From: Myxococcales bacterium
GTDB taxonomy: Bacteria; Myxococcota; Myxococcia; Myxococcales; 40CM-4-68-19
Direction of reading: 5' to 3'
DNA length: 35,040 nt
Assembly (NCBI GenBank): GCA_035498355.1
Contig: DATKAG010000541.1
Span: 1-35,040, forward strand
Numbering within the stretch: the first letter of the stretch is position 1; each line of letters opens with the position of its first letter. Position numbers and translations under genes: made by a program. The notes under the pieces are model-generated. The model was not told the origin of the DNA. It searched no databases and was given only the letters and a program-made list of their open reading frames with translations. Shown here one piece after another: positions 1-22,225 of this stretch.

Positions 1-205
1 AGGGGGCGAACACCTCGATCATCTTGCGGGCCAGCCCCCGGGCGTCGTCGAAGAAGCCGGAGTTGGCCATCGGCTGGCCGCAGCACGTTTGCGCCTCGGG
101 AAAATGGACTGTGGCCCCGTAGCGCTCGAGCAGCGCGGCGGTGGCAAGGCCGACCTGCGGGTAGAGCTGATCGACGTAGCAGGGGACGAAGAGCGCGACG
201 TCCAT
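1..205 (-). CDS. lutA: (Fe-S) oxidoreductase, LutA/YkgE family (CCG domain); N-terminal 68 aa only, gene continues off the left edge
   Basis: Reverse complement has ATG at 205..203 and reads MDVALFVPCYVDQLYPQVGLATAALLERYGATVHFPEAQTCCGQPMANSGFFDDARGLARKMIEVFAP. The FVxCxxD ... FPxxQxCCGQPxxNSG pattern is the N-terminal CCG motif of LutA/YkgE-type proteins. Absent from the ORF track because it is edge-truncated. Confidence 0.6.
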   Translation of the reverse strand, partial: MDVALFVPCYVDQLYPQVGLATAALLERYGATVHFPEAQTCCGQPMANSGFFDDARGLARKMIEVFAP

Positions 206-446
206 GCCGCGCGATTCTAGATCATCCGGGACTCGCGCCTCAGGCCGTCAGATCGCCCGGGCGTTCTCCGCTCGCGAGCCGCACGCAAGAGGAGCATCGC
301 CCCGAGTCAGCCGGCGCAGAAGAGCCGCCCCGCCCAGGGCGCCGGCGATGCGGTCGCCGGGCTTCGTCCAGCGCGTTCTTCTCCTTCCGTGCAGGCTCGC
401 CACCGGACCAATCTGGCGACCCCGGGGCGGCGCGCATGGCGGCGCA

Positions 447-459
447 CGCAAAGTTTGCG
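447..459. promoter_or_regulatory. Palindromic site CGCAA-AGT-TTGCG (copy 1 of a recurrent 13-bp motif), in the lutA/hypF divergent intergenic region
   Basis: Read directly: cgcaaagtttgcg, perfect 5-bp arms (6-bp arms if the spacer is counted as 1 nt). Lies 60 nt upstream of the hypF GTG and about 40 nt upstream of the GG of a sigma-54-like element. Confidence 0.5.
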
Positions 460-490
460 CGGTTCCGGGCGCAGAGAGCGGAAAATCTGC

Positions 491-506
491 TGGCCCCGCG
501 ATTGCT
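491..506 (+). promoter_or_regulatory. Candidate sigma-54 (-24/-12) promoter upstream of hypF
   Basis: TGGCCCCGCGATTGCT versus consensus TGGCACG-N4-TTGCW. GG at 492-493 and GC at 504-505 have the exact spacing. The predicted start site falls about 2 nt before the GTG at 519. Confidence 0.35.
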
Positions 507-518
507 GCGCCAAGGACC

Positions 519-2774
519 GTGGCCGAGGGCCGGCAGATCGAGATCCGCGGCATCGTCCAGGGCGTCGGCTTCCGGCCCTGGGTGTACCGGGTCGCTCGCG
601 ACCTGGGTGTGGCGGGCCGGGTGCTGAACGACGCGTCGGGCGTGAGGATCGAGGCGTTCGCTTCGGCCGCGACCCTCGATCGCTTCGTCGAACGGCTGCA
701 GGCGGATGCGCCGCCGGCGGCGCGCATCCAGTCTCTCAGCGTCCGGGCCATCGCGCCCCAGGCGCCGGCGGAGTTCGTCATCGCTCCCAGCGCCGGGTCC
801 AGCGAGCGCCGCGTCTCCATCCCCAGCGACCTGGCCACCTGCCCCGACTGCCTGAGCGAGATCTTCGATCCTCGCGACCGGCGCTACCGCTACCCGTTCA
901 CCAACTGCACCAACTGCGGCCCCCGCTTCACCATCGCCAGGGACGTCCCCTACGACCGGCCGGCGACCACCATGGCGCCGTTCCGCATGTGCCCGGAGTG
1001 CGCCCGCGAATACGCCGACCCCGGCGACCGCCGCTTCCACGCGCAGCCCAACGCCTGTCCCGCCTGCGGCCCGCGGTTGCGCGCGGTGCCCGATGCCCCC
1101 GACCCGCTCGCCGCCGCCCGGAAAGCCCTGCGGCGCGGGGAGATCGTCGCCGTCAAGGGCATCGGCGGGTTCCACCTCGCCTGCGACGCCGCCTCGCCCG
1201 CTGCCGTCCAGCGCCTGCGCGAGCGGAAGCGGCGCGAGGAACGGCCCTTCGCGGTGATGGCGCGCGACCTTTCGCAGGCGCGCGGCCTTTCGGATCTGGC
1301 GCCGGAGGAGGAGGCCCTGCTGCTCTCGCCGGAGCGGCCCATCGTCCTGGTCCGCCGGCGGCCGGACGCCGCGCTCGCCGATTGCGTCGCCCCGGGCAGC
1401 CCGCTGCTGGGCCTGATGCTGGCCTATTCGCCGCTGCACCACCTGCTCCTGGCGGACTTCGGCGGCCCGCTGGTGATGACCTCGGCCAACCTGAGCGAGG
1501 AGCCCATCTGCTACCGCGACGGCGAGGCGGCGGAGCGGCTGGGCGGGATCTTCGACCTGCTCCTCTTGCACGACCGGGAGATCGAGACCCGCTGCGACGA
1601 CTCCATCGTCCGGCTGATCGCCTCCGCGCCCTCGGTCCTGCGCCGCTCGCGCGGCTACGTCCCCCGCGCCATCGCCCTCCGCCGGCCCGTCCCCCGCCCC
1701 ATCCTCGCCGTGGGCGCCGATCTGAAGAACACCTTCTGCGTCGCGGCCGGCGACCAGGCCTTCCTCGGGCCGCACATCGGAGATCTGGGGAGCGCCGAGA
1801 CCTGGCGCTCGCTGCGCACCTCCGTCGAGCGGATGCTGAGCTTCCTGGAAGTCGAGCCGCAGGTGGTGGTGCACGACCTGCACCCGGACTCCGTGGCCGC
1901 GGCCTACGCGCGCACCAGGTCCGAGCCGCGCCTCGCGGTCCAGCACCACCACGCGCACGTGGCGAGCGCCATGGCCGAGCACGGCCTCGAGGGCCCGGTG
2001 ATCGGGGTGGCGTACGACGGGACGGGATACGGCACCGACGGGTCGATGTGGGGCGGGGAGGTGCTCCTCGCCACCGCCCGCGACTACCGGAGGGTGGCGA
2101 CCCTGCGGCCCATCCGCCTGGCGGGCGGAGATCGGGCCATCCGGGACGTGTGGCGGATCGCGCTGGCGGCCCTGGACGACGCCTTCGCCGGCGCTCCGCC
2201 GCTCCAGGCGCTGCCGCTGTTCCGGAAAGTGAACCCCGGCGAAGTGGCGGCCGTGCGGCAGATGATCGCCCGGGACGTGAATGCGCCGCTGGCGCGCGGG
2301 GTGGGGCGCTGGTTCGACGCCGCCTCCGCCATCGGCCTCGGCCGGACGCGGACGACTTTCGAGGGGCAGGCAGCCCTGGAATGGGATACCGCCTCGAACA
2401 CCGCCCCGAGCGGAGCTCGGGGCGGAAGGTACCCCTACGAAGTCCTGGAATCGCACGATCTCATCGAGTTGGATCTCCGCCCCCTCATCCGCGAGCTCAC
2501 CAACGACACCATCCGCGGAAGACCCGCCCGCGAGATGTCCGCCTCCTTCCACGACTCCCTCTCCGCCGCCACCGCCGACCTGGTCCGCGAGACCGTCCGC
2601 CGCCACGGCAAGCACCCCGTGGTGCTCACCGGCGGCTGCTTCCAGAACGCCCGCCTCGCGGAAACCATCTTCTCCCTGCTCACCCCGGAGCTGGAAGTCT
2701 TCCTCCACCGCGACGTCCCCTGCGGCGACGGCGGCATCGCCCTCGGCCAGGCGCTGATCGCCGCAGTGCAATAA
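519..2774 (+). CDS. hypF: [NiFe]-hydrogenase maturation carbamoyltransferase HypF
   Basis: Acylphosphatase domain ([20 protein letters not shown]). Two zinc-finger pairs (CPDCLSE...CTNCGPRF and CPECARE...CPACGPRL). YrdC-like block ([15 protein letters not shown]) and Kae1-like C-terminus ([10 protein letters not shown]). The ORF is open from 204, but 204-518 translates to Arg/Pro-rich sequence with lower GC3. GTG at 519 gives about 751 aa, a typical HypF length. Confidence 0.9.
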
Positions 2775-2931: not shown

Positions 2932-4047
2932 ATGCCACAGCGGAAGCTGATCGAGCGGCTGGAGGCCAAAGGCCTCAGCAGGCGTGACTTCATGCGCACC
3001 GCCACCATGGCGGGTGCGGCCCTGGGCCTCGCGCCCACCTTCGCGGCCGAAGCGGCCCAGGCCAAGCGGAAGCCCTCGGTGATCTGGCTGCACTTCCAGG
3101 AGTGCACCGGCTGCACCGAGACGCTCTTGCGGCCCGCGCACCCGGACGTCGCCGAGGTGATCCTGGAGACCATCTCGCTCGACTACCACGAGACCCTCTT
3201 CGCCGCGGCCGGCCACCAGATCGAGGCGGCGCTGAAGACGGCGATGAAGGAGAACGCCGGCAAGTACATCTGCGTGGTGGAGGGGGCGATCCCGGCCAAG
3301 GACAACGGGATCTACTGCAAGATCGCGGGCAAGACCGCGCTGCAGCTCCTGGACGAAGTGGCGGGGAACGCGGCGGCGGTGATCGCGCTGGGCTCCTGCG
3401 CCTCCTTCGGCGGGGTGGCCGCGGCCGAGCCCAACCCCACGGGCGCCGCGGGCGTCCCCCAGCTCTTCAGCAAGAAGCCCGTGGTGTCGCTGCCCGGCTG
3501 CCCGGCGAACCCCTACAACCTGCTGGGCGTCGTCCTGCAGTTCGTCACCTACGGCACCCTCCCCAGGCTGGACGGGCTGGGCCGGCCGATCTTCGCCTAC
3601 GGGCGCACCATCCACGAGGACTGCCCGCGGCGGCCGCACTTCGACGCCGGCCGGTTCGCCGAGGCCTTCGGCGACGAGGGCCACCGCCAGGGCTTCTGCC
3701 TCTACAAGATCGGCTGCAAGGGCCCGGTCACCCACGCCAACTGCTCGCTCAAGTACTTCTGCGAAGTGGACGGCGCCTGGCCCATCGGCATCGGCCATCC
3801 CTGCGCGGGCTGCACGGAGAAGGAGTTCGCCTTCCGCCGGCCGATGTTCGAGACCGTCCCCATCGAGCGGCCCACGCCGCCCGACACCTACCCGCCCATC
3901 GTCACCGAGCACGGCCACCCCAGCCCGATCGCCATCGGCTTCGGCGGGGCGGTGGTGGGCGCGGCCATCGGCGCGGGCGTGATGACCGCGAAGAAGCTCT
4001 CCGCGGAGGCGAAGAAGGACGGGTCGGGGCCCTCGAAGGAGGCGTGA
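2932..4047 (+). CDS. hybO: [NiFe]-hydrogenase small subunit, Tat-exported, with C-terminal membrane anchor
   Basis: Twin-arginine signal SRRDFMRTATMAGAALGLAP...AQA. Conserved blocks IWLHFQECTGCTE, GSCASFGG and GCPANP, plus distal cluster cysteines. Hydrophobic C-terminal helix IAIGFGGAVVGAAIGAGVM. Confidence 0.95.
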   Translation: MPQRKLIERLEAKGLSRRDFMRTATMAGAALGLAPTFAAEAAQAKRKPSVIWLHFQECTGCTETLLRPAHPDVAEVILETISLDYHETLFAAAGHQIEAALKTAMKENAGKYICVVEGAIPAKDNGIYCKIAGKTALQLLDEVAGNAAAVIALGSCASFGGVAAAEPNPTGAAGVPQLFSKKPVVSLPGCPANPYNLLGVVLQFVTYGTLPRLDGLGRPIFAYGRTIHEDCPRRPHFDAGRFAEAFGDEGHRQGFCLYKIGCKGPVTHANCSLKYFCEVDGAWPIGIGHPCAGCTEKEFAFRRPMFETVPIERPTPPDTYPPIVTEHGHPSPIAIGFGGAVVGAAIGAGVMTAKKLSAEAKKDGSGPSKEA

Positions 4048-4048
4048 C

Positions 4049-4912
4049 ATGGATCGCCGCAACCTGCTCAAGGTGATCTTCGCCGGAGGGGCGGCGGCGG
4101 CCCTCCCGGCTGCCGCCCGCAACCAGCGGACCGCCGCTCCCGACTCGGTGGGGATGCTCTTCGACTCCACCTACTGCATCGGCTGCAAGGCCTGCGTGGT
4201 GGCCTGCCGCGAGGCCCAGGGGCTGGCGCCGGAGCCGAAGGACGGCATGCACGACGTCCAGACCGAGCTCGACGGGCAGACCAAGAACGTCATCAAGCTC
4301 TGGAAGGACGAGAAGAACCCCGCCGTTTTCGCCTACGTGAAGCAGCAGTGCATGCACTGCATCGACCCGGGCTGCGTCTCCGTCTGCATGCTGGGCGCCT
4401 TGAAGAAGACGGCCGCCGGCCCGGTGACCTACGACAAGGACACCTGCATCGGGTGCCGCTACTGCCAGGTGGCCTGCCCCTTCAACGTCCCCAAGTTCCA
4501 GTGGAGCTCGCCCACCCCGCAGATCGTCAAGTGCGACCTCTGCCAGTCGCGCATCGCCCGGGGCGCCACCCAGCCGGCCTGCACCGAGGTCTGCCCGCGC
4601 AAGGCCGTCATCTACGGCAAGCGCGCGGACCTGCTCGAGGAGGCGCACCGCCGCCTGGCGGCCCACCCGAGCTTCTACGTGGACAAGGTGTACGGCGAGG
4701 ACGACCTGGGCGGCACCAGCGTGCTGTACCTGGCCTCGGTCCCCTTCACCAAGCTCGGCTTCCCCGAGAAGGGCAAGCGGTCCGGGCCCTCGATCACCGA
4801 GTCGGTCCAGCACGGCGTCTACCAGGGCTTCCTCACCCCGGCCATCCTCTACGCCGGCCTGGCCGCCGTGGTGATCCGCAACCGCAAGAAGGACAAGGAG
4901 GCTGACGAATGA
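4049..4912 (+). CDS. hybA: Hydrogenase-2-type 4x[4Fe-4S] ferredoxin subunit (HybA-like), Tat signal, C-terminal TM helix
   Basis: MDRRNLLKV Tat-like N-terminus. Four Cys clusters (CIGCKACVVAC, CMHCIDPGCVSVC, CIGCRYCQVACP, CDLCQSR...CTEVCP). SD GAAGGAGG lies upstream. Position between small subunit and membrane subunit matches E. coli hyb. Confidence 0.85.
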   Translation: MDRRNLLKVIFAGGAAAALPAAARNQRTAAPDSVGMLFDSTYCIGCKACVVACREAQGLAPEPKDGMHDVQTELDGQTKNVIKLWKDEKNPAVFAYVKQQCMHCIDPGCVSVCMLGALKKTAAGPVTYDKDTCIGCRYCQVACPFNVPKFQWSSPTPQIVKCDLCQSRIARGATQPACTEVCPRKAVIYGKRADLLEEAHRRLAAHPSFYVDKVYGEDDLGGTSVLYLASVPFTKLGFPEKGKRSGPSITESVQHGVYQGFLTPAILYAGLAAVVIRNRKKDKEADE

Positions 4913-6033
4913 ACCGGGCAGCTCCCCTCGGCGGTCGCATCTTCACGCCCCGCTTCAACGTCCTGCTGGCGCTGGGCGGGCTGGCGATCGCCATCCTCAT
5001 CTGGCGCTTCATCGTCGGCCTGGGCCCCACCACCGGGATGAACGACGGCTACCCGTGGGGCGTCTGGATCGCCTTCGACGTGGTCACCGGCACGGCCATC
5101 GCCTGCGGCGGCTACGCGATGGCGCTGATGGTCTACATCTTCAACAAGGGGCAGTACCACAAGCTCGTCCGGCCCGCGCTGCTCACCACCGCCCTCGGCT
5201 ACAGCGTGGCCGGCGCCTCGGTGTTCGTGGACATCGGCCGCTGGTGGAACGCCTGGAAGGTGCCGAGCTTCTTCTGGGCCTGGAACTTCAACTCGGCGCT
5301 GCTGGAAGTGGCGCTCTGCATCATGAGCTACATCATCGTGGCCTGGATCGAGCTCTCGCCCTCGTTCCTGCCCAAGCGGTTCGTCGTCTACCTGGAGAAG
5401 GCGCTCCCCTTCCTCATCGCCCTGGGGATCCTGCTCCCCACCATGCACCAGAGCTCCTTGGGGTCCCTGATGATGGTGGCGGTCACCAAGGTGCACCCGC
5501 TCTGGCACAGCCAGCTCTTGCCCCTGCTCTTCCTGATCAGCGTCATCGGCATGGGCTACGCCGGCGCCGTCCTCGAGGCCACCGTTTCCGGGAGGGTCTT
5601 CCGCCTGGAGTCCGAGACGCACCTGCTCTCGAAGATCGGCAAGGCGGTCTCGTTCTGCTACCTCGCCTTCCTCGTCCTCCGCGTCGGCGGGCTGGCCCTG
5701 AACGGCTTCCCCGGCTTCGGCGCCAACGGGATGAGCCTGCTCTTCCTCGCCGAGTTGGCCCTCTTCGCCGTCCCCGCCTGGCTCCTGCTGGACGAGCAGC
5801 GCATGCGCAACCCCGGCCAGCTCTTCCTGGCGGCGATGCTCGCCATCCTGGCCGGCGCGGTCTACCGGTTCGACGTCTACCTGGTCGCCTTCGATCCCGG
5901 CTCGAACTGGCACTACTTCCCCAGCATCCCGGAGATGCTGGTCACCATCGGTTTCGTGTCGCTCGAGATCGCGGCCTACACGCTGGCCGTGAAGCTGTTC
6001 CCGATCCTGAGCCCCGCGAGGAGCACGCCATGA
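4909..6033 (+). CDS. hybB: Hydrogenase membrane (quinone-interacting) subunit, HybB/NrfD family
   Basis: Polytopic hydrophobic 374-aa protein. ATGA overlap with hybA and ATGA overlap with hybC. Gene-order analogy to hybOABC. Confidence 0.8.
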   Translation: MNRAAPLGGRIFTPRFNVLLALGGLAIAILIWRFIVGLGPTTGMNDGYPWGVWIAFDVVTGTAIACGGYAMALMVYIFNKGQYHKLVRPALLTTALGYSVAGASVFVDIGRWWNAWKVPSFFWAWNFNSALLEVALCIMSYIIVAWIELSPSFLPKRFVVYLEKALPFLIALGILLPTMHQSSLGSLMMVAVTKVHPLWHSQLLPLLFLISVIGMGYAGAVLEATVSGRVFRLESETHLLSKIGKAVSFCYLAFLVLRVGGLALNGFPGFGANGMSLLFLAELALFAVPAWLLLDEQRMRNPGQLFLAAMLAILAGAVYRFDVYLVAFDPGSNWHYFPSIPEMLVTIGFVSLEIAAYTLAVKLFPILSPARSTP

Positions 6034-7727
6034 CGCGCGTTACCATCGATCCCGTCACTCGTATCGAAGGCCACCTCCGCATCGACGTGGAGGTGGAGAA
6101 CGGCAAGGTCAAGGACGCCTGGTCTTCGGGGCAGATGTGGCGGGGCATCGAGCTGATCCTCAAGGGCCGCGATCCGCGCGAGGCCTGGTTCTTCACCCAG
6201 CGCATCTGCGGGGTGTGCACCACCGTGCACGCCATCGCCTCGGTGCGGGCGGTGGAGAACGCCCTGGGCCTGGAGGTGCCGCTCAACGCCCAGTACATCC
6301 GCAACCTGATCGTCGCCGCTCACGCGCTGCACGACCACGTGGTCCACTTCTACCACCTCAGCGCCCTCGACTGGGTGGACGTGGTGAGCGCGCTCAAGGC
6401 CGATCCGGCCAAGGCCGCCGCCCTGGGCGAGAGCCTCTCTCCCTGGCCGGGCAACTCCCGCCGCCAGCTGGAGGCGGTGAAGAAGAAGCTGGAGGGCTTC
6501 GTCGCCGGCGGGCAGCTGGGCATCTTCACCAACGGCTACTGGGGCCACCCGGCGATGAAGCTGCCGCCGGAAGTGAACCTGCTGGCCGTCGCCCACTACC
6601 TGCAGGCGCTCGACTACCAGCGCCGGGCCAACCAGGTGGTGGCGGTCCTCGGGGGCAAGACGCCCAACATCCAGAACCTGGCGGTGGGGGGCGTGGCCAA
6701 CGCCATCAACCTCGACAACCAGGCGACGCTGAACATGGAGAAGCTGGTCCACGTCCGCGACCTGTTGCGCGAGGTGCAGCAGTTCGTCGAGCAGGTCTAC
6801 GTCCCGGACGTCTGCGCAATCGGGGCCATGTACCCGGAGTGGCTGGGCTATGGGGCGGGCGTGCGCAACTACCTCGCCGTCCCCGACATGCCGCTGGACA
6901 CCAAGGGCGAGAAGTTCGACATGCCCGGCGGGACCATCTTCGCCGGCAACATCGCCGGGGTGAAGCCCATTTCCTCCTTCCACGACGAGTACTTCCGCGA
7001 CAACGTGGCCGAGAGCGTGGCCCACGCCTGGTACGAGGGCGCCGCCGAGCTGCACCCCTACGAGGGAGAGACGAAGCCGCAGTACACGGACTTCGACGCC
7101 AAGGGGAAGTACAGCTGGTGCAAGGCGCCCCGCTTCCAGGGCAAGCCCATGCAGGTGGGGCCCTCCGCCGAGGTGCTGGTGGCCTTCGCCCAGGGGCACG
7201 AGCCGACGAAGCGCTGGGCCACCAAGGTGCTGGACACCGCGGGGAGCATCGCCAAGGTGAAGCTGACGCCGGCGGTGCTGGAGAGCACCCTGGGCCGCCA
7301 CGCGGCGCGGGCGGTGCGCTGCGCGGTGCTGGCCGAGCTGGCGCTGAAGCACTGGCAGCTCCTGGTGGACAACGTGGGCAAGGGCGACACGGCCATCTTC
7401 AACGCCCCGAAGTTCCCCAAGGGCGAGATCCGGGGCTTCGGCTTCCACGAGGCGCCGCGCGGAACCCTCTCCCACTGGACGGTGATCGCCGACGGCAAGA
7501 TCAAGAACTACCAGGCGGTGGTGCCCTCCACCTGGAACGCCGGCCCCCGCGACGCCAAGGGCCAGCCCGGGCCGTACGAGGCCTCGCTGATCGGCAACCC
7601 GGTGGCGGACCCGGAGAAGCCGCTGGAGGCGCTGCGCACCATCCACTCCTTCGACCCGTGCCTGGCCTGCGCCGTGCACACGGTGGACGCGGAAGGGCGC
7701 GAGATCGCGCGGGTGAAGGTGCTGTGA
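6030..7727 (+). CDS. hybC: [NiFe]-hydrogenase large subunit
   Basis: MTRVTIDPVTRIEGHLRI N-terminus. N-terminal Ni-binding motif RICGVCTTVH and C-terminal DPCLACAVH, followed by a 15-aa extension (TVDAEGREIARVKVL) of the kind removed by the maturation protease. The ORF track frame opens at 5055, but the ATG at 6030 overlaps the hybB stop. Confidence 0.95.
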   Translation: MTRVTIDPVTRIEGHLRIDVEVENGKVKDAWSSGQMWRGIELILKGRDPREAWFFTQRICGVCTTVHAIASVRAVENALGLEVPLNAQYIRNLIVAAHALHDHVVHFYHLSALDWVDVVSALKADPAKAAALGESLSPWPGNSRRQLEAVKKKLEGFVAGGQLGIFTNGYWGHPAMKLPPEVNLLAVAHYLQALDYQRRANQVVAVLGGKTPNIQNLAVGGVANAINLDNQATLNMEKLVHVRDLLREVQQFVEQVYVPDVCAIGAMYPEWLGYGAGVRNYLAVPDMPLDTKGEKFDMPGGTIFAGNIAGVKPISSFHDEYFRDNVAESVAHAWYEGAAELHPYEGETKPQYTDFDAKGKYSWCKAPRFQGKPMQVGPSAEVLVAFAQGHEPTKRWATKVLDTAGSIAKVKLTPAVLESTLGRHAARAVRCAVLAELALKHWQLLVDNVGKGDTAIFNAPKFPKGEIRGFGFHEAPRGTLSHWTVIADGKIKNYQAVVPSTWNAGPRDAKGQPGPYEASLIGNPVADPEKPLEALRTIHSFDPCLACAVHTVDAEGREIARVKVL

Positions 7728-8251
7728 ACCGCATTTGCCTGATGGGCGTCGGGAACGTGCTGATGCACGACGACGCCCTCGGGCCGTACGTGCTCGAGTC
7801 GCTGAAGGCGAAGGTGGAGCTGCCCCTTGAGGTGACGGTGTTCGACGCCGGCACTCCCGGCCTCGACCTCACCCTCTTCCTCGTCGAATTCGACGCCCTG
7901 ATCGCGGTCGACGCCCTCAAGGGGGCGGGCGCGCCGGGCGAGGTGCGCACGTACAGGCGCGACCAGCTCCTCGAAGGCGCCTTGCCCATCACCCTGAGCC
8001 CGCACGAGCCGACGCTGCGCGAGGCGCTGATGCGGATGGGGCTCATGGGCCAGGGGCCGCGGGAGGTCTTCCTGGTGGGCGCCATCCCCGGCGAGGTGAG
8101 CACTGGCGTCGGCCTTTCCCCGGCGGTGCGCGCCGCGGTGCCGGAGATCGAGCAGCACATCCTGCGCGAGCTTTCGCGGTTGGGCGCAAGGGTTGCGCAA
8201 CGGGCTTCCCGCCAACAGCCCGACCACTGGTGGGAGCGCCCCGCGGCCTAG
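7724..8251 (+). CDS. hybD: Hydrogenase maturation endopeptidase (HybD/HyaD family)
   Basis: GTGA overlap with hybC. ICLMGVGNVLMHDDALG, AVDA and LSPHEPTLREAL match the family's acidic/Asp/His metal-ligand blocks. Confidence 0.85.
   Translation: MNRICLMGVGNVLMHDDALGPYVLESLKAKVELPLEVTVFDAGTPGLDLTLFLVEFDALIAVDALKGAGAPGEVRTYRRDQLLEGALPITLSPHEPTLREALMRMGLMGQGPREVFLVGAIPGEVSTGVGLSPAVRAAVPEIEQHILRELSRLGARVAQRASRQQPDHWWERPAA
8184..8198. promoter_or_regulatory. Palindromic site GCGCAA-GGG-TTGCGC (copy 2 of the recurrent motif), about 100 nt upstream of hypC, inside the 3' tail of hybD
   Basis: Read directly: gcgcaagggttgcgc, perfect 6-bp arms with a 3-nt spacer. Confidence 0.45.
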
Positions 8252-8297: not shown

Positions 8298-8585
8298 ATG
8301 TGCCTCGGGGTGCCCGGCAAGGTCCTCTCGGTAGCGGGGATGAGCGCGGAAGTCGACTTCTTCGGCGTCCGCCGCCAGGTGCGCCTGGACATCGTCGACG
8401 CCCCCGTCGCGCCCGGCGATTACGTGCTCAACCACGTCGGGTTCGCCATCCACCGCATTCCCGAGGAGGAGATCGGCGAGACCCTGGCGCTCTTCGACAC
8501 CATCCTGCGCGAGGCGCAGCCGCAGGACCTGATGGCGGCGGACGTGCGCGGGGAGATCGAGGCGACGGATGCAGCCCGGAAATGA
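8298..8585 (+). CDS. hypC: Hydrogenase assembly chaperone HypC/HupF
   Basis: Canonical N-terminus MCLGVPGKV, about 95 aa. The frame is open from 8193, but the MCLGVP start is diagnostic. Confidence 0.9.
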   Translation: MCLGVPGKVLSVAGMSAEVDFFGVRRQVRLDIVDAPVAPGDYVLNHVGFAIHRIPEEEIGETLALFDTILREAQPQDLMAADVRGEIEATDAARK

Positions 8586-9711
8586 TCCGCGCGTCCGCGA
8601 GCTGAAGTTCCGCGATCCCGAGCGGGCGCGCCGGTTGACCGCTGCGCTCCGGCAGGCCGCGGAGGACATCGGCCGGCCGGCGAGCGTGATGCACGTCTGC
8701 GGCAGCCACGAGCAGGCCATCGCCCGTTTCGGGCTGCGCGCCGCCTTTCCCACGAGCCTGAACGTGATCATGGGGCCCGGCTGCCCCGTCTGCATCACCG
8801 ACGTGCCCGAGGTCGACGAGGGCGTCGCCCTGGCCCTGCAGGGCGTGCGCATCGCCACCTACGGGGACATGCTCAAGGTGCCGGGGACGGTGAAGTCGCT
8901 GGCCAGCGCCCAGGCCGAGGGCGCCCGCATCGACATCGTCTACAGCGTCGCCCAGGCCGTGCAGCTGGCGCGCTCCGTCTCCGAGGAAGTCTGCTTCTTC
9001 GCCACCGGCTTCGAGACCACCGCGGTGGCGACGGCGGCGGAGATCCTCGCCGGGCCGCCGGAGAACTTCTCCGTCCTCTCCGCGCACAAGTACATCCCGC
9101 CGGTGATGGAGATCGTCGCGGAGATGCCGGAGAACAAGGTCGAGGGCTTCCTCGCCGCCGGCCATGCCGCCTCGATCACCGGCTGGGGCGTGTTCGAGCC
9201 GTTCGCCGCCCGGCACGGGCTCCCCGTGGTCGTCGCCGGGTTCGAGCCGCTCGACATCCTCGCCGCGCTGGTCAAGCTCGTCGAGCTGGTGCGGGACGGG
9301 AGCCCCGGGGTCGTCAACATGTTCCCCCGCTGCGTGACGAAGGAGGGCAACCTCCCCGCGCAAGAGACGCTCTGGAAGGTCTTCCGGCCCCTGGGTGGCC
9401 GCTGGCGCGGGATCGCGCACGTCCCCAACGGGAACCTCAGGTTGCGCGACGAGTTCGCGCACCTCGACGCACGGCGCCGCTTCCGGATCGACCTGGCGCG
9501 CTTCTGGGACTACGCGCCCGCGGGCCTCGCCCAGCAGTGCATCTGCGGCGACATCATGGCGGGCATCAACTCGCCCACCGGCTGCGCCCTCTACGGCAAG
9601 CAGTGCACGCCGGAGAACCCGGTCGGCGCCTGCATGGTCTCCACCGAGGGCACCTGCCGCATCTGGCACCAGTACGGCGGGCTCCCCAACCTGCGCGAGG
9701 TGAAGGCATGA
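8569..9711 (+). CDS. hypD: Hydrogenase maturation Fe-S protein HypD
   Basis: CGSHEQAI and GPGCPVCIT motifs and a Cys-rich C-terminus (CICGDI...CALYG...C...C). 17-nt overlap with hypC. Confidence 0.9.
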   Translation: MQPGNDPRVRELKFRDPERARRLTAALRQAAEDIGRPASVMHVCGSHEQAIARFGLRAAFPTSLNVIMGPGCPVCITDVPEVDEGVALALQGVRIATYGDMLKVPGTVKSLASAQAEGARIDIVYSVAQAVQLARSVSEEVCFFATGFETTAVATAAEILAGPPENFSVLSAHKYIPPVMEIVAEMPENKVEGFLAAGHAASITGWGVFEPFAARHGLPVVVAGFEPLDILAALVKLVELVRDGSPGVVNMFPRCVTKEGNLPAQETLWKVFRPLGGRWRGIAHVPNGNLRLRDEFAHLDARRRFRIDLARFWDYAPAGLAQQCICGDIMAGINSPTGCALYGKQCTPENPVGACMVSTEGTCRIWHQYGGLPNLREVKA

Positions 9712-10730
9712 ACCCGCTGCTCGGCGAGCGGGTCGCTCTCAAGCACGGCGCCGGCGGCCGGGCCATGCGCATGCTGATCGAGAGCATCTTCGTCGAAGGG
9801 CTGGCCGCCGAGGTCGACGGCGTGGGGCTGGCGGCGATGGACGACGGCGCCGCCCTGCGCGTCGGCGAGCAGTGGCTGATCCTCACCACCGACTCGCACG
9901 TGGTGCACCCCCGCTTCTTCCCCGGCGGGGACATCGGGCGCCTCTCCATCTCCGGCACCGTCAACGACCTGGCGATGATGGGCGCCACCGAGCCGCTGGG
10001 CCTCACCTGCGCGGTGGTGCTCGAGGAGGGCTTCCCCTTCTCCGAGCTGGAGAGGATCCGCGACTCGATGAAGGCGGCCGCCGCCGAGGCGGGCGCCCGG
10101 GTGGTCACCGGCGACACCAAGGTGATGCGCAAGGGCGAGGTGGACGGGATCGTCCTCAACACCACCGGAGTCGCCCTGACGGGCACGCTGGTGCGCGACT
10201 GCGACCTGCGGCCCGGCGACCGGATCATCGTCAGCGGCTCGATCGGCGACCACGGCTTCGCGGTGCTCGCCGCCCGCCACGGCCTCGACCTGCAGGGGGA
10301 CCTGCGCAGCGACGTCGCGCCGGTCAACGGGGTCGTCCGGCTGGCGCTGCGCGCCGGGGGCGTCGTCGCCCTCAAGGATCCGACGCGGGGCGGGCTGGCG
10401 AGCACGCTGCACGAGCTGGCGGCGAAAAGCGGGGTGGGAATCCTGCTGGAGGAAGGGGCGATCCCCATCCACGGCGAGGTGCGGGCGGCCTCGGAGCTGC
10501 TGGGGATCGACCCGCTGCACGTCGCCAACGAAGGCAAGGCGGTGATCGGGGTGCGGCCGGAGAGCGCGGAGAAGGTGCTGGGCGCAATCCGCGAGCACCC
10601 GCTCGGCCGCGAGTCCGCCATCGTCGGCACCTGCCTCGACGACTGGAAGGGGAAGGTGATCCTCGATACCGGCTTCGGGAAACGGCTCGTGGCCGAGATC
10701 GAGGGCGAGCCCATGCCGCGGATCTGCTGA
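9708..10730 (+). CDS. hypE: Hydrogenase maturation carbamoyl dehydratase HypE
   Basis: AIR-synthase-like fold blocks (GAGGRAM, TTDSHVV, GDTKV) and the diagnostic C-terminal PRIC. ATGA overlap with hypD. Confidence 0.9.
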   Translation: MNPLLGERVALKHGAGGRAMRMLIESIFVEGLAAEVDGVGLAAMDDGAALRVGEQWLILTTDSHVVHPRFFPGGDIGRLSISGTVNDLAMMGATEPLGLTCAVVLEEGFPFSELERIRDSMKAAAAEAGARVVTGDTKVMRKGEVDGIVLNTTGVALTGTLVRDCDLRPGDRIIVSGSIGDHGFAVLAARHGLDLQGDLRSDVAPVNGVVRLALRAGGVVALKDPTRGGLASTLHELAAKSGVGILLEEGAIPIHGEVRAASELLGIDPLHVANEGKAVIGVRPESAEKVLGAIREHPLGRESAIVGTCLDDWKGKVILDTGFGKRLVAEIEGEPMPRIC

Positions 10731-11563
10731 TGAGCTTCATCCGCATCGAGCGCGAGGGAGCGGTGGGCACCCTGGTGATGGAGCGCCGGGAGCGCTTCAA
10801 CGCCATGGACTGCGAGATGGCCCGCGACTTCCGCAAGGCCGGCTTGCAGCTCGCCCGCGACCCGGAGATCCGGGCGGTGGTGCTGCGCGGCTACCCGGGC
10901 GTCTTCTCGAGCGGAGCGGACCTCAAGTACATCCGCGGCGGCGGGGATCCGAAGGGGCTCGGGTACCTCTCCCCGCAGGCGCGCAGCGTGCCTCAGGGAT
11001 ACGGCGAGGTGTTCAAGCAGATCCTCGAATACCTGCACTCGACGATCTCCGAAATCCGCCGCAGCGCGAAGCCGTGGATCGCCGCGGTGGACGGGGTGGC
11101 CGCCGCGGGCGGATTCGGCATCGCGATGTGCTGCGACCTCGTCGTCGCCTCGGCGCGCTCGACCTTCGAGTGGGCGTATGGGAAGACCGCGCTCACCGGG
11201 GCGGAGAGCAGCACGTTCATGATCACCCGGCTGGTCGGCTTCCGCCGGGCGATGGAGCTGGCGCTGCTCAACCCCCGCCTGGACGCGGCGGGAGCGCTGG
11301 CGGCGGGCCTCCTGAACCGGGTCTTCCCCGACGATTCCTTCGACGCCGAGGTGAAGGCGCTGGCGGAGCGCGTGGCGGCGGGGCCCACCCGGTCGTTCGC
11401 GGTCACCAAGATGCTCCTCAACCAGGCGGCGGGCATCGACCGGCTCGACTTCCACCTGGACCAGGAGCTGGAGAACCTGGCCCGCAGCGCCGACAGCGAG
11501 GACTTTCGCGAGGGTCTCGACGCCTTCTTTGCCCGCCGGCCGGCGGCCTTCCGGGGGCGCTGA
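10730..11563 (+). CDS. Enoyl-CoA hydratase/isomerase (crotonase) superfamily protein embedded in the hyp operon
   Basis: Crotonase signatures: RFNAMD, VVLRG..GVFSSGADLK, AAVDGVAAAGGFGIAMCCDL, LLNPRLDAAGALAAGLLNRVF. The start overlaps the hypE stop by 1 nt and the stop overlaps the hypA start by 1 nt. Confidence 0.8.
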   Translation: MSFIRIEREGAVGTLVMERRERFNAMDCEMARDFRKAGLQLARDPEIRAVVLRGYPGVFSSGADLKYIRGGGDPKGLGYLSPQARSVPQGYGEVFKQILEYLHSTISEIRRSAKPWIAAVDGVAAAGGFGIAMCCDLVVASARSTFEWAYGKTALTGAESSTFMITRLVGFRRAMELALLNPRLDAAGALAAGLLNRVFPDDSFDAEVKALAERVAAGPTRSFAVTKMLLNQAAGIDRLDFHLDQELENLARSADSEDFREGLDAFFARRPAAFRGR

Positions 11564-11895
11564 TGCACGAGTACTCGCTGGTGCAGGCGCTGGTTTCCGA
11601 CGTGGAGCGGCAGATGCGCGGCCGCGCCGGCGAGGTGCGCCGGGTGCGGGTGCGGGTGGGAGCGCTCTCGGGAGTCGATCCCGGGCTGTTCTCCACCGCG
11701 TACCAGACCTTCCGTCCCCAGACCGTCTGCGCCTCCGCGGAGCTGGAGCTCACCGGGGTGCCGGCGCGCTGGGCCTGCCCACGGTGCCGGCGGCAGATTG
11801 CCGCGGGAGAGCGCCTGCAGTGCTGCGGCGAGCCGGCCCGGCTGGTGGAGGGCGACGACCTGGTGCTGGAGCAGATCGAGCTGGAGGTGCCGTGA
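11563..11895 (+). CDS. hypA: Hydrogenase nickel-insertion protein HypA (variant zinc site)
   Basis: MHEYSLVQALV N-terminus (MHE nickel site), 110 aa. First zinc motif is CPRC, but the second position reads QCCGEP instead of CxxC. Confidence 0.85.
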   Translation: MHEYSLVQALVSDVERQMRGRAGEVRRVRVRVGALSGVDPGLFSTAYQTFRPQTVCASAELELTGVPARWACPRCRRQIAAGERLQCCGEPARLVEGDDLVLEQIELEVP

Positions 11896-11989: not shown

Positions 11990-12481
11990 ATGATGGCGCG
12001 CATTCCCCTGCTGGTGCTCGGCGTAGGCGATCCGCTCCGCCGCGACGACGGCCTCGGGCCGGCGGCCGTGGCGCTGCTCAGCCGCCGCTGGGAGGCCCCG
12101 GAGGGCGTGCGCGTGCTCGACGGCGGCACCTTGGGCGCGGACCTGCTTCCCTGGGTGGCCCGGGCGGACGCGCTCATCGTGGTGGACGCCGTGTACATCG
12201 ACCAGCCCCCGGGAACGCTGGCCCGCATCGCGGAGCCCGGAGAGGTGCTGTACGCGGAGGCGGAGCGGTTGGGCCTGCAGCAGGCGGGCGACCTGGCCAT
12301 GCCCGCCCGCCTGGCGCTTTTGGGGATCGTCCCCCAGGAGTCGGGGCCCGGGTTGCGCAGGTCGCGCTGCGTGGAGCAGGCGTTGCCGTCCCTGGTGGAC
12401 CTGATCCTCGCCGAGGCGGCTTCGCTCGGCTTCCCCTTCACGGCTCTCTCGCGGCAAACCCAGCAAGCCTTCGTCCAATAG
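11990..12481 (+). CDS. HyaD/HybD-family hydrogenase maturation endopeptidase paralog lacking any histidine
   Basis: LLVLGVGDPLRRDDGLG and IVVDAV blocks align with hybD. SD GGAGGGAGG lies 9 nt upstream. The block equivalent to hybD LSPHEPT reads LGLQQAG, and the 163-aa product contains no His. Confidence 0.75.
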   Translation: MMARIPLLVLGVGDPLRRDDGLGPAAVALLSRRWEAPEGVRVLDGGTLGADLLPWVARADALIVVDAVYIDQPPGTLARIAEPGEVLYAEAERLGLQQAGDLAMPARLALLGIVPQESGPGLRRSRCVEQALPSLVDLILAEAASLGFPFTALSRQTQQAFVQ

Positions 12482-12490: not shown

Positions 12491-13183
12491 ATGTGCCAGG
12501 ACTGCGGCTGCGGCGACAGCGAGCTCGTTCCCGTCGAAGTGCAGGAACGCCTCCTGGCCGCCAACGACCGGACGGCGGCGCACAACCGGGAGCACTTCGT
12601 GGAGCACGGCGTCCTGGCCCTGAACCTGATGGGCTCGCCGGGCTCGGGGAAGACGGCGCTCCTGGAGGCGACGGCGCGCTGGACGAAAGGGAGGCTGCGC
12701 CTGGGCGCGGTGAGCGGGGACCTGGAGACCGACCGCGACGCCGCCCGGCTGATCAAGGCCGGCATTCCCGCCCGCGCCATCACCACCGGCACCGCCTGCC
12801 ACCTGGACGCCTCGCTGGTGCACCACGCGCTGCACGAGTTCCCCCTCGCCGGCCTGGACGTGTTCGCCATCGAGAACGTGGGCAACCTGGTCTGCCCCGC
12901 CATCTACGATCTGGGCCAGGCCGCGAACGTCGTGGTCCTCTCCGTCACCGAGGGGGAGGACAAGCCGCTCAAGTATCCCACCATGTTCCGCGCGGCCGAC
13001 CTGGTGGTGCTCACCAAGCTCGACCTCTTGTCCCACCTCGACATCCGGGTGGAGGCCATCGAGGATGCCCTCGCCCGCGTGATGCCTTCGCCCCGCCTGA
13101 TCGCCGTCTCGGCAAAGACCGGCGCGGGGATCGGGGACTGGCTGGAGTGGATCGCGCAGCGGCGGCAGAAGAAGGTGGCTTGA
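12491..13183 (+). CDS. hypB: Hydrogenase nickel-incorporation GTPase HypB
   Basis: N-terminal MCQDCGCG high-affinity metal motif. P-loop GSPGSGKT, plus ENVGNLVCP and TKLDL GTPase blocks. Confidence 0.92.
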   Translation: MCQDCGCGDSELVPVEVQERLLAANDRTAAHNREHFVEHGVLALNLMGSPGSGKTALLEATARWTKGRLRLGAVSGDLETDRDAARLIKAGIPARAITTGTACHLDASLVHHALHEFPLAGLDVFAIENVGNLVCPAIYDLGQAANVVVLSVTEGEDKPLKYPTMFRAADLVVLTKLDLLSHLDIRVEAIEDALARVMPSPRLIAVSAKTGAGIGDWLEWIAQRRQKKVA

Positions 13184-13197: not shown

Positions 13198-13554
13198 CTA
13201 AGACGCCACCGCCCTCCGCGACCTGGACGACACGCAGTCGATGCAGTACCTCGCCTCCGGGATCGCCCGCAGCCGCTGCCGTCCCACCGCGCCCCCGCAG
13301 CTCTGGCAGGTCCCGTACACGCCCTTGTCGATGCGCTCCAGCGCCGCCACCAGCTCGGAGAGCTCGCCGGTCTGCGCTCCCCGGATGGACTCCAGCACCT
13401 CGATGGGCGAACGATGGGCCGCGTGGTCGAGGATGTCGGGGTGGGCGGCTCCCTGGAGCTGCGCCTCCTCCTTGTCGACGCCGGCAATCAGCGCCTCGAT
13501 GACCTTCTTCCGGTCGAGGAGCCGCTTGCGGGCCTCTTTCGCCATCTCGTCCAT
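13198..13554 (-). CDS. DksA/TraR-family C4 zinc-finger protein
   Basis: 118 aa: MDEMAKEARKRLL... coiled-coil region, then CQSCGGAVGRQRLRAIPEARYCIDC (CxxC-N17-CxxC). It is the real 3' part of the spurious 609-aa ORF 13198..15027. Confidence 0.8.
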   Translation of the reverse strand: MDEMAKEARKRLLDRKKVIEALIAGVDKEEAQLQGAAHPDILDHAAHRSPIEVLESIRGAQTGELSELVAALERIDKGVYGTCQSCGGAVGRQRLRAIPEARYCIDCVSSRSRRAVAS

Positions 13555-13635
13555 CGCCAGATGCCTCCGCAGCCAGCGATTACAAGAACGATGCCGCGCC
13601 GGATGGCAGGGTGACACAGCCCTTTTCCCGCATGG

Positions 13636-13655
13636 TTTGCGCCTCGGGGCGCAAA
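13636..13655 (-). terminator. GC-rich hairpin TTTGCGCC-N4-GGCGCAAA between hemY and the dksA-like gene (possible attenuator, terminator or operator)
   Basis: Perfect 8-bp inverted repeat with a 4-nt loop, 10 nt downstream of the hemY stop. No U-tract follows on either strand, so intrinsic-terminator function is uncertain. Confidence 0.25.
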
Positions 13656-13664
13656 ATCGAGCCC

Positions 13665-14921
13665 TTACGAGGAGAGGCGGGCCGCGGCGGCTGCGCCCGA
13701 GCGGGCCACGTCGGGCACGCCGACCCCGTCGTAGGCCGCGCCGGCCAGCTCCAGACCGGGGAATCCGGAGAGGAGCGAGCGGAGCTCGCGCACCCTCTCC
13801 CGGTGCCCCGGCGCGTACTGGGGAATGGCCTCGCTCCAGCGCACCACCCGGACGTACTCGGGGTCCTCGCGCACCCCCCAGGTGGCGCGCAGGTCCGCCA
13901 TCACCTTGTCCACCAGCTCCGCGTCGGGAAGGGCGGCCCGCTCGGGGTGCCGGGCGCCGCCGCAGATGGCGGTGACCAGCGCCCGTCCCTGGGGAGCGCG
14001 GCCGGGGAGCATGCTGCTGGGGAGCAGGGTGCCCACGCCGTGCAGCGTGCCGTCGGCGTCGATCATCCCGAACCCGCGCGGGAGCCCGTCCTGGCGCAGG
14101 CCGAGGTGCACCACCGTCACCGGGGCGCAGCGCAAGGCCCCCGCCGCCTCGGCGAAAGCGGGCGCGAAGCTTTTCGCCAGCTCGGCGGCGGCGGCGGCGG
14201 GAACCGCCAGCACCACGCCGTCGAAGCGATATCCCTCGACGATCCAGGTCTTCCCTTCCGGCTCGACCGCCCTCACCCGCGCGCCCAGGCGCACGCGTCC
14301 GTCCAGGGTGCGGGCCGCCGCTTCCGCCAGCATCCCCAGCCCCCCGCGCAGCGTCCAGATCCCGCTCCTCGGCCCCTTCTCCCGGCGAAAGGCGTTGACG
14401 ATCAGCGAGCCCTTCTCGCCCAGCGCTCCCAGCGCGGGGAAGGCGTCCCGCGCGGAGAGCGCGTCCGGGTCCCCGGCGTAGACGCCGGCGCTCATCACCT
14501 TCGCCGCCAGGCCTCCGGCGCGCTTGCCCAGGCGGCGCTCGAGGAATGCGCGCAAGGGAACGTCCTCGCGCAGGGGCTTCGCGAAGAGCGGCTCGAGCAG
14601 CGCCCGGCCCAGGCCGGCGCGGGCGAGCAGCGGCAGGCTGGGCGCCTTGAGCACGCGCCCGTCCAGGTGCACCCAGCGGGTCATGGGCGGCGAGGGCTTC
14701 ACCACCTCGTCGCGCAGCCCGCTCGCCTCCAGCAGCGAGTCGAGCGGCCGGGCGAGGAAGTTGGGGCCGTCCTCGGTCAGGTAGCCCCGCTCGGAGCGCG
14801 TGCCGACCTTGCCGCCGGCGCGGTCGGCGGCTTCGAAGACCACCGGATCGGCCCCGCGCCGGATCAGCTCGTGCGCCGCGGAAAGACCCGCGATTCCGCC
14901 CCCGATCACTGCCACTCGCAT
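13665..14921 (-). CDS. hemY: Protoporphyrinogen/coproporphyrinogen oxidase, FAD-dependent (HemY family)
   Basis: MRVAVIGGGIAGLSAAHEL dinucleotide-binding N-terminus, GKV..R....YL.E.GPN block, 418 aa. SD AGGAGG lies 9 nt upstream of the ATG at 14921. It is the genuine C-terminal part of ORF 13665..16538. Confidence 0.85.
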   Translation of the reverse strand: MRVAVIGGGIAGLSAAHELIRRGADPVVFEAADRAGGKVGTRSERGYLTEDGPNFLARPLDSLLEASGLRDEVVKPSPPMTRWVHLDGRVLKAPSLPLLARAGLGRALLEPLFAKPLREDVPLRAFLERRLGKRAGGLAAKVMSAGVYAGDPDALSARDAFPALGALGEKGSLIVNAFRREKGPRSGIWTLRGGLGMLAEAAARTLDGRVRLGARVRAVEPEGKTWIVEGYRFDGVVLAVPAAAAAELAKSFAPAFAEAAGALRCAPVTVVHLGLRQDGLPRGFGMIDADGTLHGVGTLLPSSMLPGRAPQGRALVTAICGGARHPERAALPDAELVDKVMADLRATWGVREDPEYVRVVRWSEAIPQYAPGHRERVRELRSLLSGFPGLELAGAAYDGVGVPDVARSGAAAAARLSS

Positions 14922-14938
14922 CGCCGACGTCCTCCTGA

Positions 14939-14951
14939 CGCAATTCTTGCG
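14939..14951. promoter_or_regulatory. Palindromic site CGCAA-TTC-TTGCG (copy 3 of the recurrent motif) in the hemY/hemN divergent region
   Basis: Read directly: cgcaattcttgcg. It starts 2 nt beyond the hemY Shine-Dalgarno sequence, and lies 18 nt from the hemY ATG and 109 nt upstream of the hemN ATG. Confidence 0.45.
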
Positions 14952-15059
14952 CGCCGTGTTCCATCGCGCACTTCCTGCGCGCGACGCGCCTCGATGGCGG
15001 GTGTAGAGGCCCGGAAGCAATGGGCATTCCACGGCATGCTTCGTGAACTGTGACCGGGC

Positions 15060-21564: not shown

Positions 21565-21577
21565 GGCCCCATCCTTC

Positions 21578-21592
21578 GCAAGTGTCGTGCCG
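21578..21592 (-). promoter_or_regulatory. Near-consensus sigma-54 promoter element abutting the activator paralog-1 start
   Basis: The minus strand reads CGGCACGACACTTGC(G), against consensus TGGCACG-N4-TTGCW. The C of GC is at 21578, so the predicted start site is about 21566, 2 nt before the ATG at 21564. The element overlaps the AAGGA SD. Confidence 0.45.
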
Positions 21593-21645
21593 CAGGTGGG
21601 GTCCCCGGCGGCTGGGGGAAGTGCCGCCAGGGGTGCCCCAAGCGC

Positions 21646-21975: not shown

Positions 21976-21995
21976 GGGCTTTTCTCCTTGAGGAG

Positions 21996-22106
21996 TCAGT
22001 GGAACAGCGGTGCGCAGGCCAGACCGATGAGGATGGCGCCCATCCAGACGAGCAGGAACGCTGTTGCCCGGGAACGCGGATTGGGCCTCGCCGTCGATGG
22101 ACGCAT
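21996..22106 (-). CDS. Unannotated 36-aa single-TM sORF directly upstream of the cytochrome c gene
   Basis: The minus strand reads AAGGAGG, then 7 nt, then ATG. Product is MRPSTARPNPRSRATAFLLVWMGAILIGLACAPLFH followed by a stop, which lies 20 nt before the cytochrome c GTG. Below the ORF-track length cutoff. GC3 is high in the hydrophobic half and lower in the N-terminal third. Confidence 0.45.
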   Translation of the reverse strand: MRPSTARPNPRSRATAFLLVWMGAILIGLACAPLFH

Positions 22107-22138
22107 ACGAAAGCCTCCTTTACGACGTCTGCGTGTTG

Positions 22139-22154: not shown

Positions 22155-22225
22155 CTCTGCCGTCGAGCGTCAAGACGAGGTTTGCACGCACGAAATGCAC
22201 AGCGGAATGCCGCAAATCCCCCCTC

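Follow-up and report, generated by a model that had tools for sequence, protein, structure and literature searches.

A stand-alone crotonase-fold gene between hypE and hypA of a Myxococcales bacterium, a candidate enzyme for the CO ligand of [NiFe]-hydrogenases

The hyp locus and its crotonase family

The stretch of DNA analysed here (the window) comprises 35,040 nucleotides of contig DATKAG010000541.1 from a Myxococcales bacterium (assembly GCA_035498355.1) and has a G+C content of 71%. Gene calls, made by GC-frame analysis together with Pfam scans, place its hydrogenase and hyp genes in a single long cluster on the + strand, in the order hypF, small subunit, HybA-like, HybB-like, large subunit, protease, hypC, hypD, hypE, crotonase, hypA, second protease and hypB (Table 1). 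The hydrogenase is presumably of the Hyb type, an assignment that we take from the gene order of Escherichia coli hybOABC. The subject of this article is the stand-alone crotonase-fold open reading frame (ORF) between hypE and hypA. It belongs to a widespread and undescribed family that, judged from sequence and setting, most likely represents a variant of HypX-type CO synthesis. HypX (HoxX) of Cupriavidus necator, Rhizobium leguminosarum and Aquifex aeolicus (PDB 6J0P) is an N10-formyl-tetrahydrofolate-dependent CO synthase of aerobic [NiFe]-hydrogenase maturation, in which the C-terminal module (HypX-C) has the crotonase fold.

A first-pass annotation of this DNA had placed a 277-aa gene of the enoyl-CoA hydratase/isomerase superfamily within hypCDE-X-hypA, and the assignment is borne out. 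The translation (MSFIRIEREG...AAFRGR, stop) matches Pfam ECH_1 at 1.1e-42 (146.6 bits against a cutoff of 27) and ECH_2 at 2.4e-20, and 187 PDB crotonase matches with a Foldseek probability of 1.00 place it in the crotonase superfamily (PF00378). Its flanks are HypE and HypA by their own Pfam domains (Table 1). The first methionine agrees with the starts of the homologues and is nearly invariant in a 20-sequence family alignment. Both oxyanion-hole segments are present, VFSSGADL (residues 58-65) for F-x-x-G-x-D-L and AAAGG (124-128) for A-x-G-G, and both are aligned and invariant. The annotation was also right about one-nucleotide overlaps on both sides: TGATG at 10728-10732 joins the hypE stop (TGA) to the crotonase start (ATG), and TGATG at 11561-11565 joins the crotonase stop to the hypA start. 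The crotonase ORF is apparently co-transcribed and translationally coupled with hypE and hypA.

Table 1. Features of the window; positions are those of the 35,040-nucleotide stretch
Feature	Position	Strand	Evidence or remark
hypF (start codon uncertain)	204..2774	+	Acylphosphatase, zf-HYPF, Sua5/YrdC and HypF_C domains
Presumed Hyb-type (group 1c-like) [NiFe]-hydrogenase, whole	2932..7727	+	Pfam matches
[NiFe] small subunit, Tat-signal	2932-4047	+	Pfam
4Fe-4S protein, HybA-like	4049-4912	+	Pfam
NrfD/HybB-like protein	4909-6033	+	Pfam
Large subunit	6030-7727	+	Pfam; start position examined separately
Hydrogenase maturation endopeptidase	7724..8251	+	HycI 4e-21
hypC	8298..8585	+	PF01455 1e-24
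hypD (name rests on homology)	8569..9711	+	tblastn: conserved hypD in related loci, which carry Pfam HypD
hypE	9708..10730	+	AIRS/AIRS_C; C-terminal ...PRIC; stop overlaps crotonase start
Stand-alone crotonase-fold ORF, 277 aa, proposed formyl-CoA decarbonylase / HypX-C analogue	10730..11563	+	ECH_1, family alignment, hhalign against HypX-C
Family-specific conserved insertion, residues about 70-92, GGGDPKGLGYLSPQARSVPQGYG	10937..11005	+	Between first oxyanion-hole segment and helix EVFKQILEYLHS
Tyr150 codon	11177..11179	+	Aligns with HypX Tyr439 (C. necator) / Tyr416 (A. aeolicus); position of canonical crotonase second Glu
Glu159 codon, motif L-T-G-A-E-S-S-T-F	11204..11206	+	Aligns with HypX Glu449 / Glu426 (L-Y-G-S-E-Y-W-T-Y)
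hypA	11563..11895	+	PF01155 1e-22; start overlaps crotonase stop
Second HycI-type maturation endopeptidase	11990..12481	+	HycI 4e-14
hypB	12491..13183	+	cobW/HypB 5e-17
Sigma-54 response regulator	20158-21564	-	
Universal stress protein (Usp)	22333-22758		
Hemerythrin-domain protein	22652-23464		
Sigma-54 response regulator	23519-24910	+	
Response-regulator histidine kinase hybrid	24918-26003		
Protoglobin-sensor histidine kinase	26701-28161		

Among 5.8 billion proteins searched, hundreds with a length of about 277 aa are 69-94% identical to the window crotonase. Many of them carry the JGI name '2-(1,2-epoxy-1,2-dihydrophenyl)acetyl-CoA isomerase', an automatic annotation that probably misnames this family. 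The window protein stays below the cutoff of every NCBIfam model, the nearest being the alternative-type oxepin-CoA hydrolase (158 against 300 bits) and PaaG (TIGR02280; 147 against 345). The family is compact, with most members 62-94% identical, and mean column identity in the 20-sequence alignment (A1) is 78%. In a library of 1.84 billion proteins clustered at 50%, the family consists of one full-length representative (458 bits) with fragments and frameshifted calls; among full-length entries it is followed by P0252 at 269 bits and then by generic crotonases at no more than 216 bits. The long 'fusion' representatives P0255, P0257, P0258, P0289 and P0329 were found to be frameshifted gene calls and no true fusions.

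Family-specific peptide patterns match 445 GTDB species genomes, and the locus survey was made on the best 80 of these. All 80 are metagenome-assembled genomes (MAGs) from soil and sediment phyla, including Myxococcota, Acidobacteriota (Thermoanaerobaculia, Vicinamibacteria), Rokubacteria/Methylomirabilia, Gemmatimonadota, Binatia, Planctomycetota and Chloroflexi, one betaproteobacterium, and others. The closest relatives of the window crotonase, at 90% identity, are in Myxococcales MAGs, and no homologue was found in a plasmid collection at E <= 1e-30. One locus labelled 'Nitrosotalea sp.' (L007, DATIWG010000055.1) has a bacterial-type hyp cluster, and its crotonase groups on the tree with L012, L018 and Rokubacteria sequences; the label is probably a binning error. 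A full-text literature search found only fused HypX, and no stand-alone crotonase or split, two-gene HypX in hyp clusters; its coverage was incomplete and a prior description elsewhere is possible.

When the window proteins were compared by tblastn with the 80 loci, hypC-hypD-hypE was found immediately upstream of the crotonase almost everywhere. With direct adjacency defined as a gap within 150 nt, 67 of the 72 loci that could be assessed, from many phyla, have hypE directly before the crotonase, alone or with a formyltransferase gene in between, and the linkage of crotonase and hypE spans at least eight phylum-level groups, so that the conserved synteny which the first-pass annotation had proposed as a check is present. 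Among the exceptions, the gaps in L021 and L034 are slightly greater than 150 nt, L056 has a different inserted gene, and L079 has the rearranged order hypD-crotonase-hypE. In L073 the order is unusual (hypC-hypE-crotonase-hypD), yet hypE is still directly upstream. The hypA gene follows directly in 48 of 79 loci. One-base stop/start overlaps by themselves are ordinary in operons; what goes beyond chance is the synteny with hypE.

The remaining exception is an orphan family member in a Rokubacteria MAG (L016, 7983-8828), away from any hyp gene and with genes for an outer-membrane efflux protein, Usp, OsmC and an ECF-type sigma factor among its neighbours. In 22 of the 80 loci, including L035 (10631-11200), hypB is followed by a gene for a conserved, membrane-anchored and Cys-rich protein of about 190 aa (CPETC...C..C...C..C...CWDC), which has no NCBIfam match.

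Active-site residues, insertion and partner formyltransferases

The pair of glutamates characteristic of canonical hydratases is absent from the window protein. MAFFT alignment places G130 at the position of rat Glu144 and Y150 at that of Glu164, and PaaF has Glu at both. By these residues the protein is not a canonical enoyl-CoA hydratase (EC 4.2.1.17). The register that pairs Y150 with HypX Tyr439 and E159 with Glu449 is the same in BLASTP, in a joint MAFFT alignment and in hhalign. R. eutropha mutants at Tyr439 or Glu449 (Tyr416 and Glu426 in A. aeolicus) have the phenotype of strains lacking HypX, and the two residues have been proposed as the bases for decarbonylation of formyl-CoA (Muraki et al., 2019; PMC6802093).

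Six residues around this site, E147, Y150, G157, A158, E159 and T162, are invariant in all 81 family sequences. The specificity of the glutamate was assessed with the 116 nearest full-length representatives of the 50% clusters, aligned to the family hidden Markov model (HMM). Glu at column 159 is restricted to family members, and all seven HypX sequences have S-E; in 100 of the 116 a PaaG-type Asp stands one position earlier, at 158. The catalytic Asp of PaaG itself (D136 of Thermus thermophilus, in a P-D-x loop) is replaced in the family by the invariant Ala158. Two controls are instructive. P0249 has A-A-G instead of A-E-S and adjoins DUF3047 and several TIR-domain genes, not hyp, and P0267 has a P-D-G loop and lies among genes for acyl-CoA dehydrogenase, MeaB, CoA-transferase and thiolase. 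Since these nearest relatives outside the family are in non-hyp contexts, the Glu159 signature tracks the hyp context.

The insertion after the first oxyanion-hole segment, which had been noticed in the first reading of the sequence, amounts to approximately 17-20 residues relative to PaaF, PaaG and HypX-C, all three of which have a gap there in MAFFT and hhalign alignments. It is highly conserved in the family, with L77, Y79, L80, P82, R85, G90 and G92 invariant in the 20-sequence alignment, and it may close a small acyl pocket or form a docking surface. An AlphaFold2 model of the crotonase has a predicted local distance difference test score of 71.8, falling below 50 in the insertion. A 315-aa crotonase paralogue in L094-L096 (P0249) has a similar insertion without Glu159.

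In 20 of the 80 loci, a formyltransferase gene of 230-290 aa is found between hypE and the crotonase. Its product matches Formyl_trans_N (1e-20 to 1e-23), is PurN/PurU-like with an N-x-H...D catalytic motif, and has a conserved C-terminal tail (AYA[FY]AHQEWM...WGPLL). The family is small, with 353 proteins at E <= 1e-10, all of them stand-alone. The order hypE-formyltransferase-crotonase-hypA was present in all three long contigs that were looked up through the formyltransferase. In a metagenome scan, every copy of at least 45% identity with readable flanks adjoins hypE and/or the crotonase, none of these being unlinked, and weaker matches are ordinary PurN-type genes elsewhere. This PurN-like family thus appears to be dedicated to the slot between hypE and the crotonase. 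The separate formyltransferase that the earlier note had suggested looking for is therefore found in related loci, and not in the window.

All Myxococcota loci, the window included, are without the formyltransferase. Its presence is scattered on a neighbour-joining tree of the crotonases, which points to multiple gains or losses and indicates that the proteins without a formyltransferase are no distinct subtype. No alignment column separates crotonases linked to a formyltransferase from those that are not, and presumably the enzyme does not differ between the two settings. The N-terminal module of HypX (HypX-N) gave no tblastn match in the window (E > 0.3) or in the 80 loci.

A rarer, divergent branch of the crotonases forms a bridging lineage. 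P0252 is 42-46% identical to members of the main family and carries FEWAY and S-A-E; P0391 is a 69% relative. Both lie in a hypE-formyltransferase-crotonase arrangement, that of P0391 being hypC-D-E-formyltransferase-crotonase. The formyltransferases of these loci have Formyl_trans_N together with Formyl_trans_C. The one in L093 scores 91.5 bits (1e-29) with a HypX-N HMM, for which the PurN-like family scores are about 0, and it resembles HypX in having F-H-P in place of N-x-H, and Asp at position D80. P0252 is the top scorer of the HypX-C HMM at 94.7 bits. With this lineage there are four arrangements: fused HypX, a HypX-N-like formyltransferase with a crotonase, a PurN-like formyltransferase with a crotonase, and the crotonase alone, as in the window. 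The contig with the pair of HypX-N-like formyltransferase and crotonase (L097; GCA_053532615.1, JAIYOQ010000069.1) also contains TGT, Q_salvage and DUF7343 genes and a convergent hypF. In L139 (3657-7512) and L144, a hypC-like gene is followed first by a distant Formyl_trans_N gene (approximately 40% identity to the family formyltransferase) and then by radical-SAM-like and nitroreductase-like genes, with no crotonase.

Proposed function, alternatives and genomic setting

It is nearly certain, in our judgement, that the crotonase is, in one way or another, a true accessory factor of the Hyp system. As a dedicated enzyme of hydrogenase maturation it would bind formyl-CoA, the thioester of which would be polarised by the oxyanion hole; Glu159 and Tyr150 would then expel CO and CoA-SH, and the CO would be captured by Fe on the HypC-HypD scaffold, the genes for which lie just upstream of hypE. 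That the protein is such a stand-alone formyl-CoA decarbonylase, delivering CO to HypCD, is the explanation that we consider probable from comparative sequence data. With no formyltransferase in the window, the supply of formyl-CoA would depend on an unlinked enzyme or on central metabolism. The form without a formyltransferase, which in the window stands beside an anaerobic-type Hyb hydrogenase and hemN, could conceivably use formyl-CoA of ordinary metabolism and so provide a HypX-N-independent, possibly O2-independent route to the CO ligand, a suggestion that we regard as doubtful.

Several observations weigh against formyl-CoA decarbonylation. The family-type formyltransferase was not found in the 35-kb window (best tblastn E 0.2), 60 of the 80 loci are without one within reach, and no formyl-CoA transferase, oxalyl-CoA decarboxylase or folate gene was present among the other genes of the window. 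Tyr150 is common in generic relatives (91 of 116), which leaves Glu159 as the only discriminating residue. The confidence of the AlphaFold2 model is low exactly at the insertion and the catalytic loop (residues 63-88 and 150-160), and the top 50 Foldseek matches in the PDB are ordinary enoyl-CoA hydratase and PaaG structures, 6J0P not being among them. With the family HMM, PaaG-like proteins reach 147-156 bits, and HypX-C only 30-66. In the reverse direction, the family representative scores 79.6 bits with the HypX-C HMM, where the median is 60 and generic crotonases reach up to 89.6, so that this HMM does not separate the family from generic crotonases. The 80 listed genome loci, moreover, are all from MAGs. 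Since the protein as a whole resembles PaaG-type crotonases more closely than HypX-C in sequence and fold, it is not a fragment of HypX. The refutation foreseen in the first-pass annotation, that the nearest neighbours would be ordinary hydratases with an intact Glu pair and no conserved synteny, is contradicted by the loss of the Glu pair and by the synteny.

This similarity is the basis of one alternative, in which the protein is a PaaG-like isomerase or hydrolase acting on another acyl-CoA, either with an unknown role in maturation or as an unrelated gene merely retained in the operon. In NCBIfam and the PDB the protein matches the alternative-type oxepin-CoA hydrolase and PaaG best, PaaG and enoyl-CoA hydratase structures lead the Foldseek list, and the family HMM ranks PaaG-like proteins far above HypX-C. 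We nevertheless find this explanation improbable: the NCBIfam scores are well below cutoff (158 against 300 and 147 against 345), the catalytic Asp has become Ala158, no paa or beta-oxidation gene is nearby in the window, the linkage to hypE extends across many phyla, and the association with a formyltransferase points to C1 chemistry. That association also bears on the proposal of a thioesterase or handling enzyme for formyl-CoA or another short acyl-CoA, which might, for example, hydrolyse or buffer formyl-CoA near HypCD. The crotonase superfamily includes thioester hydrolases, the top NCBIfam match is of a hydrolase type, and a Glu near the thioester could serve as nucleophile or base. To hydrolyse the product of an adjacent, dedicated formyltransferase, as in the hypE-formyltransferase-crotonase contigs, would be futile, however, and HypX uses the same Tyr/Glu pair for decarbonylation (PMC6802093); we give this proposal little credence.

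A mainly non-catalytic role, as a CoA- or nucleotide-binding partner or chaperone of HypE or HypCD, would be in keeping with the tight translational coupling to hypE and hypA, with the conserved, surface-like insertion, and with the 1:1:1 complex that HypX forms with HypC and HypD (PMC6802093). The invariance in 81 of 81 sequences of the six residues named above and of the oxyanion-hole glycines is the pattern of an enzyme, and a mainly non-catalytic partner seems very improbable. Formyl-CoA decarbonylation is supported by the synteny, by the co-occurrence of formyltransferases and by the Y150/E159 pair; to this extent the earlier suggestion of a split or minimal HypX-type enzyme, or of another acyl-CoA-dependent step, is upheld, with the amendment that the protein is no broken-off HypX domain and that PaaG-type crotonases are its nearest relatives.

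Where the CO ligand of [NiFe]-hydrogenases comes from is established only in organisms that have fused HypX. In a 2025 review, the source of CO and the enzymes that make it in the absence of HypX are still counted among the open questions; the review speculates about formyl-CoA and lists possible sources of it other than HypX (PMC12134894). If the proposed function is correct, enzymatic CO synthesis extends to hundreds of uncultured soil and sediment species of Myxococcota, Acidobacteriota, Gemmatimonadota, Methylomirabilota/Rokubacteria, Binatia and others, in which the pathway is seen in modular form, as a decarbonylase alone or with a PurN-like or a HypX-N-like formyltransferase. The crotonase would then offer a small, separately expressible protein for study of formyl-CoA decarbonylation and of the origin of formyl-CoA without a dedicated transferase. 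Should the route without a formyltransferase also be real, organisms without HypX would have a first candidate enzyme for synthesis of their CO ligand, and formyl-CoA decarbonylation would be the conserved core of a pathway with interchangeable formyl donors.

Elsewhere in the window, the second HycI protease lies between hypA and hypB without an adjoining hydrogenase. The Myxococcaceae loci L013, L019, L024, L028, L032 and L071 have a small-/large-subunit pair between hypA and this protease, and the window therefore looks like the remnant of a lost or relocated second hydrogenase. A radical-SAM neighbour was considered as part of the crotonase system and rejected, since it is a true HemN equivalog (oxygen-independent coproporphyrinogen III oxidase; 15060-16412, + strand; 498 bits against a cutoff of 325). 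HemN recurs beside hyp genes in several Myxococcota loci in differing arrangements, upstream of hypF in L013, L019, L046 and L071, and this recurrence may mean that the cluster is expressed under anoxic or micro-oxic conditions. Between hypB and hemN, on the - strand (13198-15027), lies a gene for a 609-aa protein with a DksA/TraR C4 zinc finger in its last 110 or so residues only; the N-terminal portion of about 490 residues is without any match. A 1098-aa ORF of uncertain start (16205-19501, + strand) encodes a pyruvate phosphate dikinase/PEP-utilising enzyme fused to a C-terminal universal stress protein. It is followed by a dense block of sensing and regulatory genes (20158-28161; Table 1), which may provide O2 or redox control of the hydrogenase cluster. 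CBS and Usp proteins and isoamylase are also among the other window genes.

Comparison with canonical hydratases, PaaG and HypX

With canonical hydratases (rat enoyl-CoA hydratase, 1DUB; E. coli PaaF) the window protein shares the fold, the oxyanion-hole motifs for CoA thioesters and the Pfam domain ECH_1, but it differs in the replacement of both catalytic glutamates (G130, Y150) and in having no fatty-acid context. The best sequence and fold matches are to PaaG, the 1,2-epoxyphenylacetyl-CoA isomerase (6SL9, 3HRX, 4FZW), and to the alternative-type oxepin-CoA hydrolase, which are of the same length class (E about 1e-32, Foldseek E 1e-18 to 1e-19, approximately 29-34% identity). In contrast to these, it falls below the family cutoffs, has Ala158 in place of Asp with the carboxylate shifted to Glu159, contains the extra insertion, and is found in a hyp/hydrogenase rather than a paa context.

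The differences from HypX are considerable. The window protein is a crotonase only, with no fused formyltransferase domain, and is only about 26-27% identical to HypX-C. It lacks the C-terminal extension of HypX, the hhalign match ending near residue 220, has its own insertion of roughly 17-20 aa, and has FEWAY where HypX has NPHY. The partner formyltransferases, where present, are mostly PurN/PurU-like with N-x-H...D, in contrast to H74-D80-D109 of HypX-N. Two histories would account for this: recruitment of the family, ancestral or parallel, from among PaaG-like crotonases, or rapid divergence of HypX-C once it had been fused. In one plasmid (Mesorhizobium huakuii p_1; L088, 4055-5632), the annotation divides a classical hypX that follows hypE into two ORFs, for a formyltransferase piece of 106 aa and a crotonase piece of 353 aa; it is more probably a gene that has been disrupted than a working split.

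Against these differences stand the likenesses. The window crotonase aligns with C. necator HypX in BLASTP at 27% identity over 142 aa (E 2e-6), and the family aligns with seven HypX C-domains in hhalign with a probability of 99.5 (E 6e-23) over 199 columns. Fused hypX lies directly after hypE in C. necator pHG1 and in R. leguminosarum, and on a plasmid of Sulfurimonas paralvinellae the order hypB-C-D-E-hypX-hypA gives it the slot of the window crotonase. Both proteins have the crotonase fold, the aligned Tyr and Glu, a G-[AS]-E-x-x-T motif and the A-G-G oxyanion segment, and neither has the glutamate pair of the hydratases.

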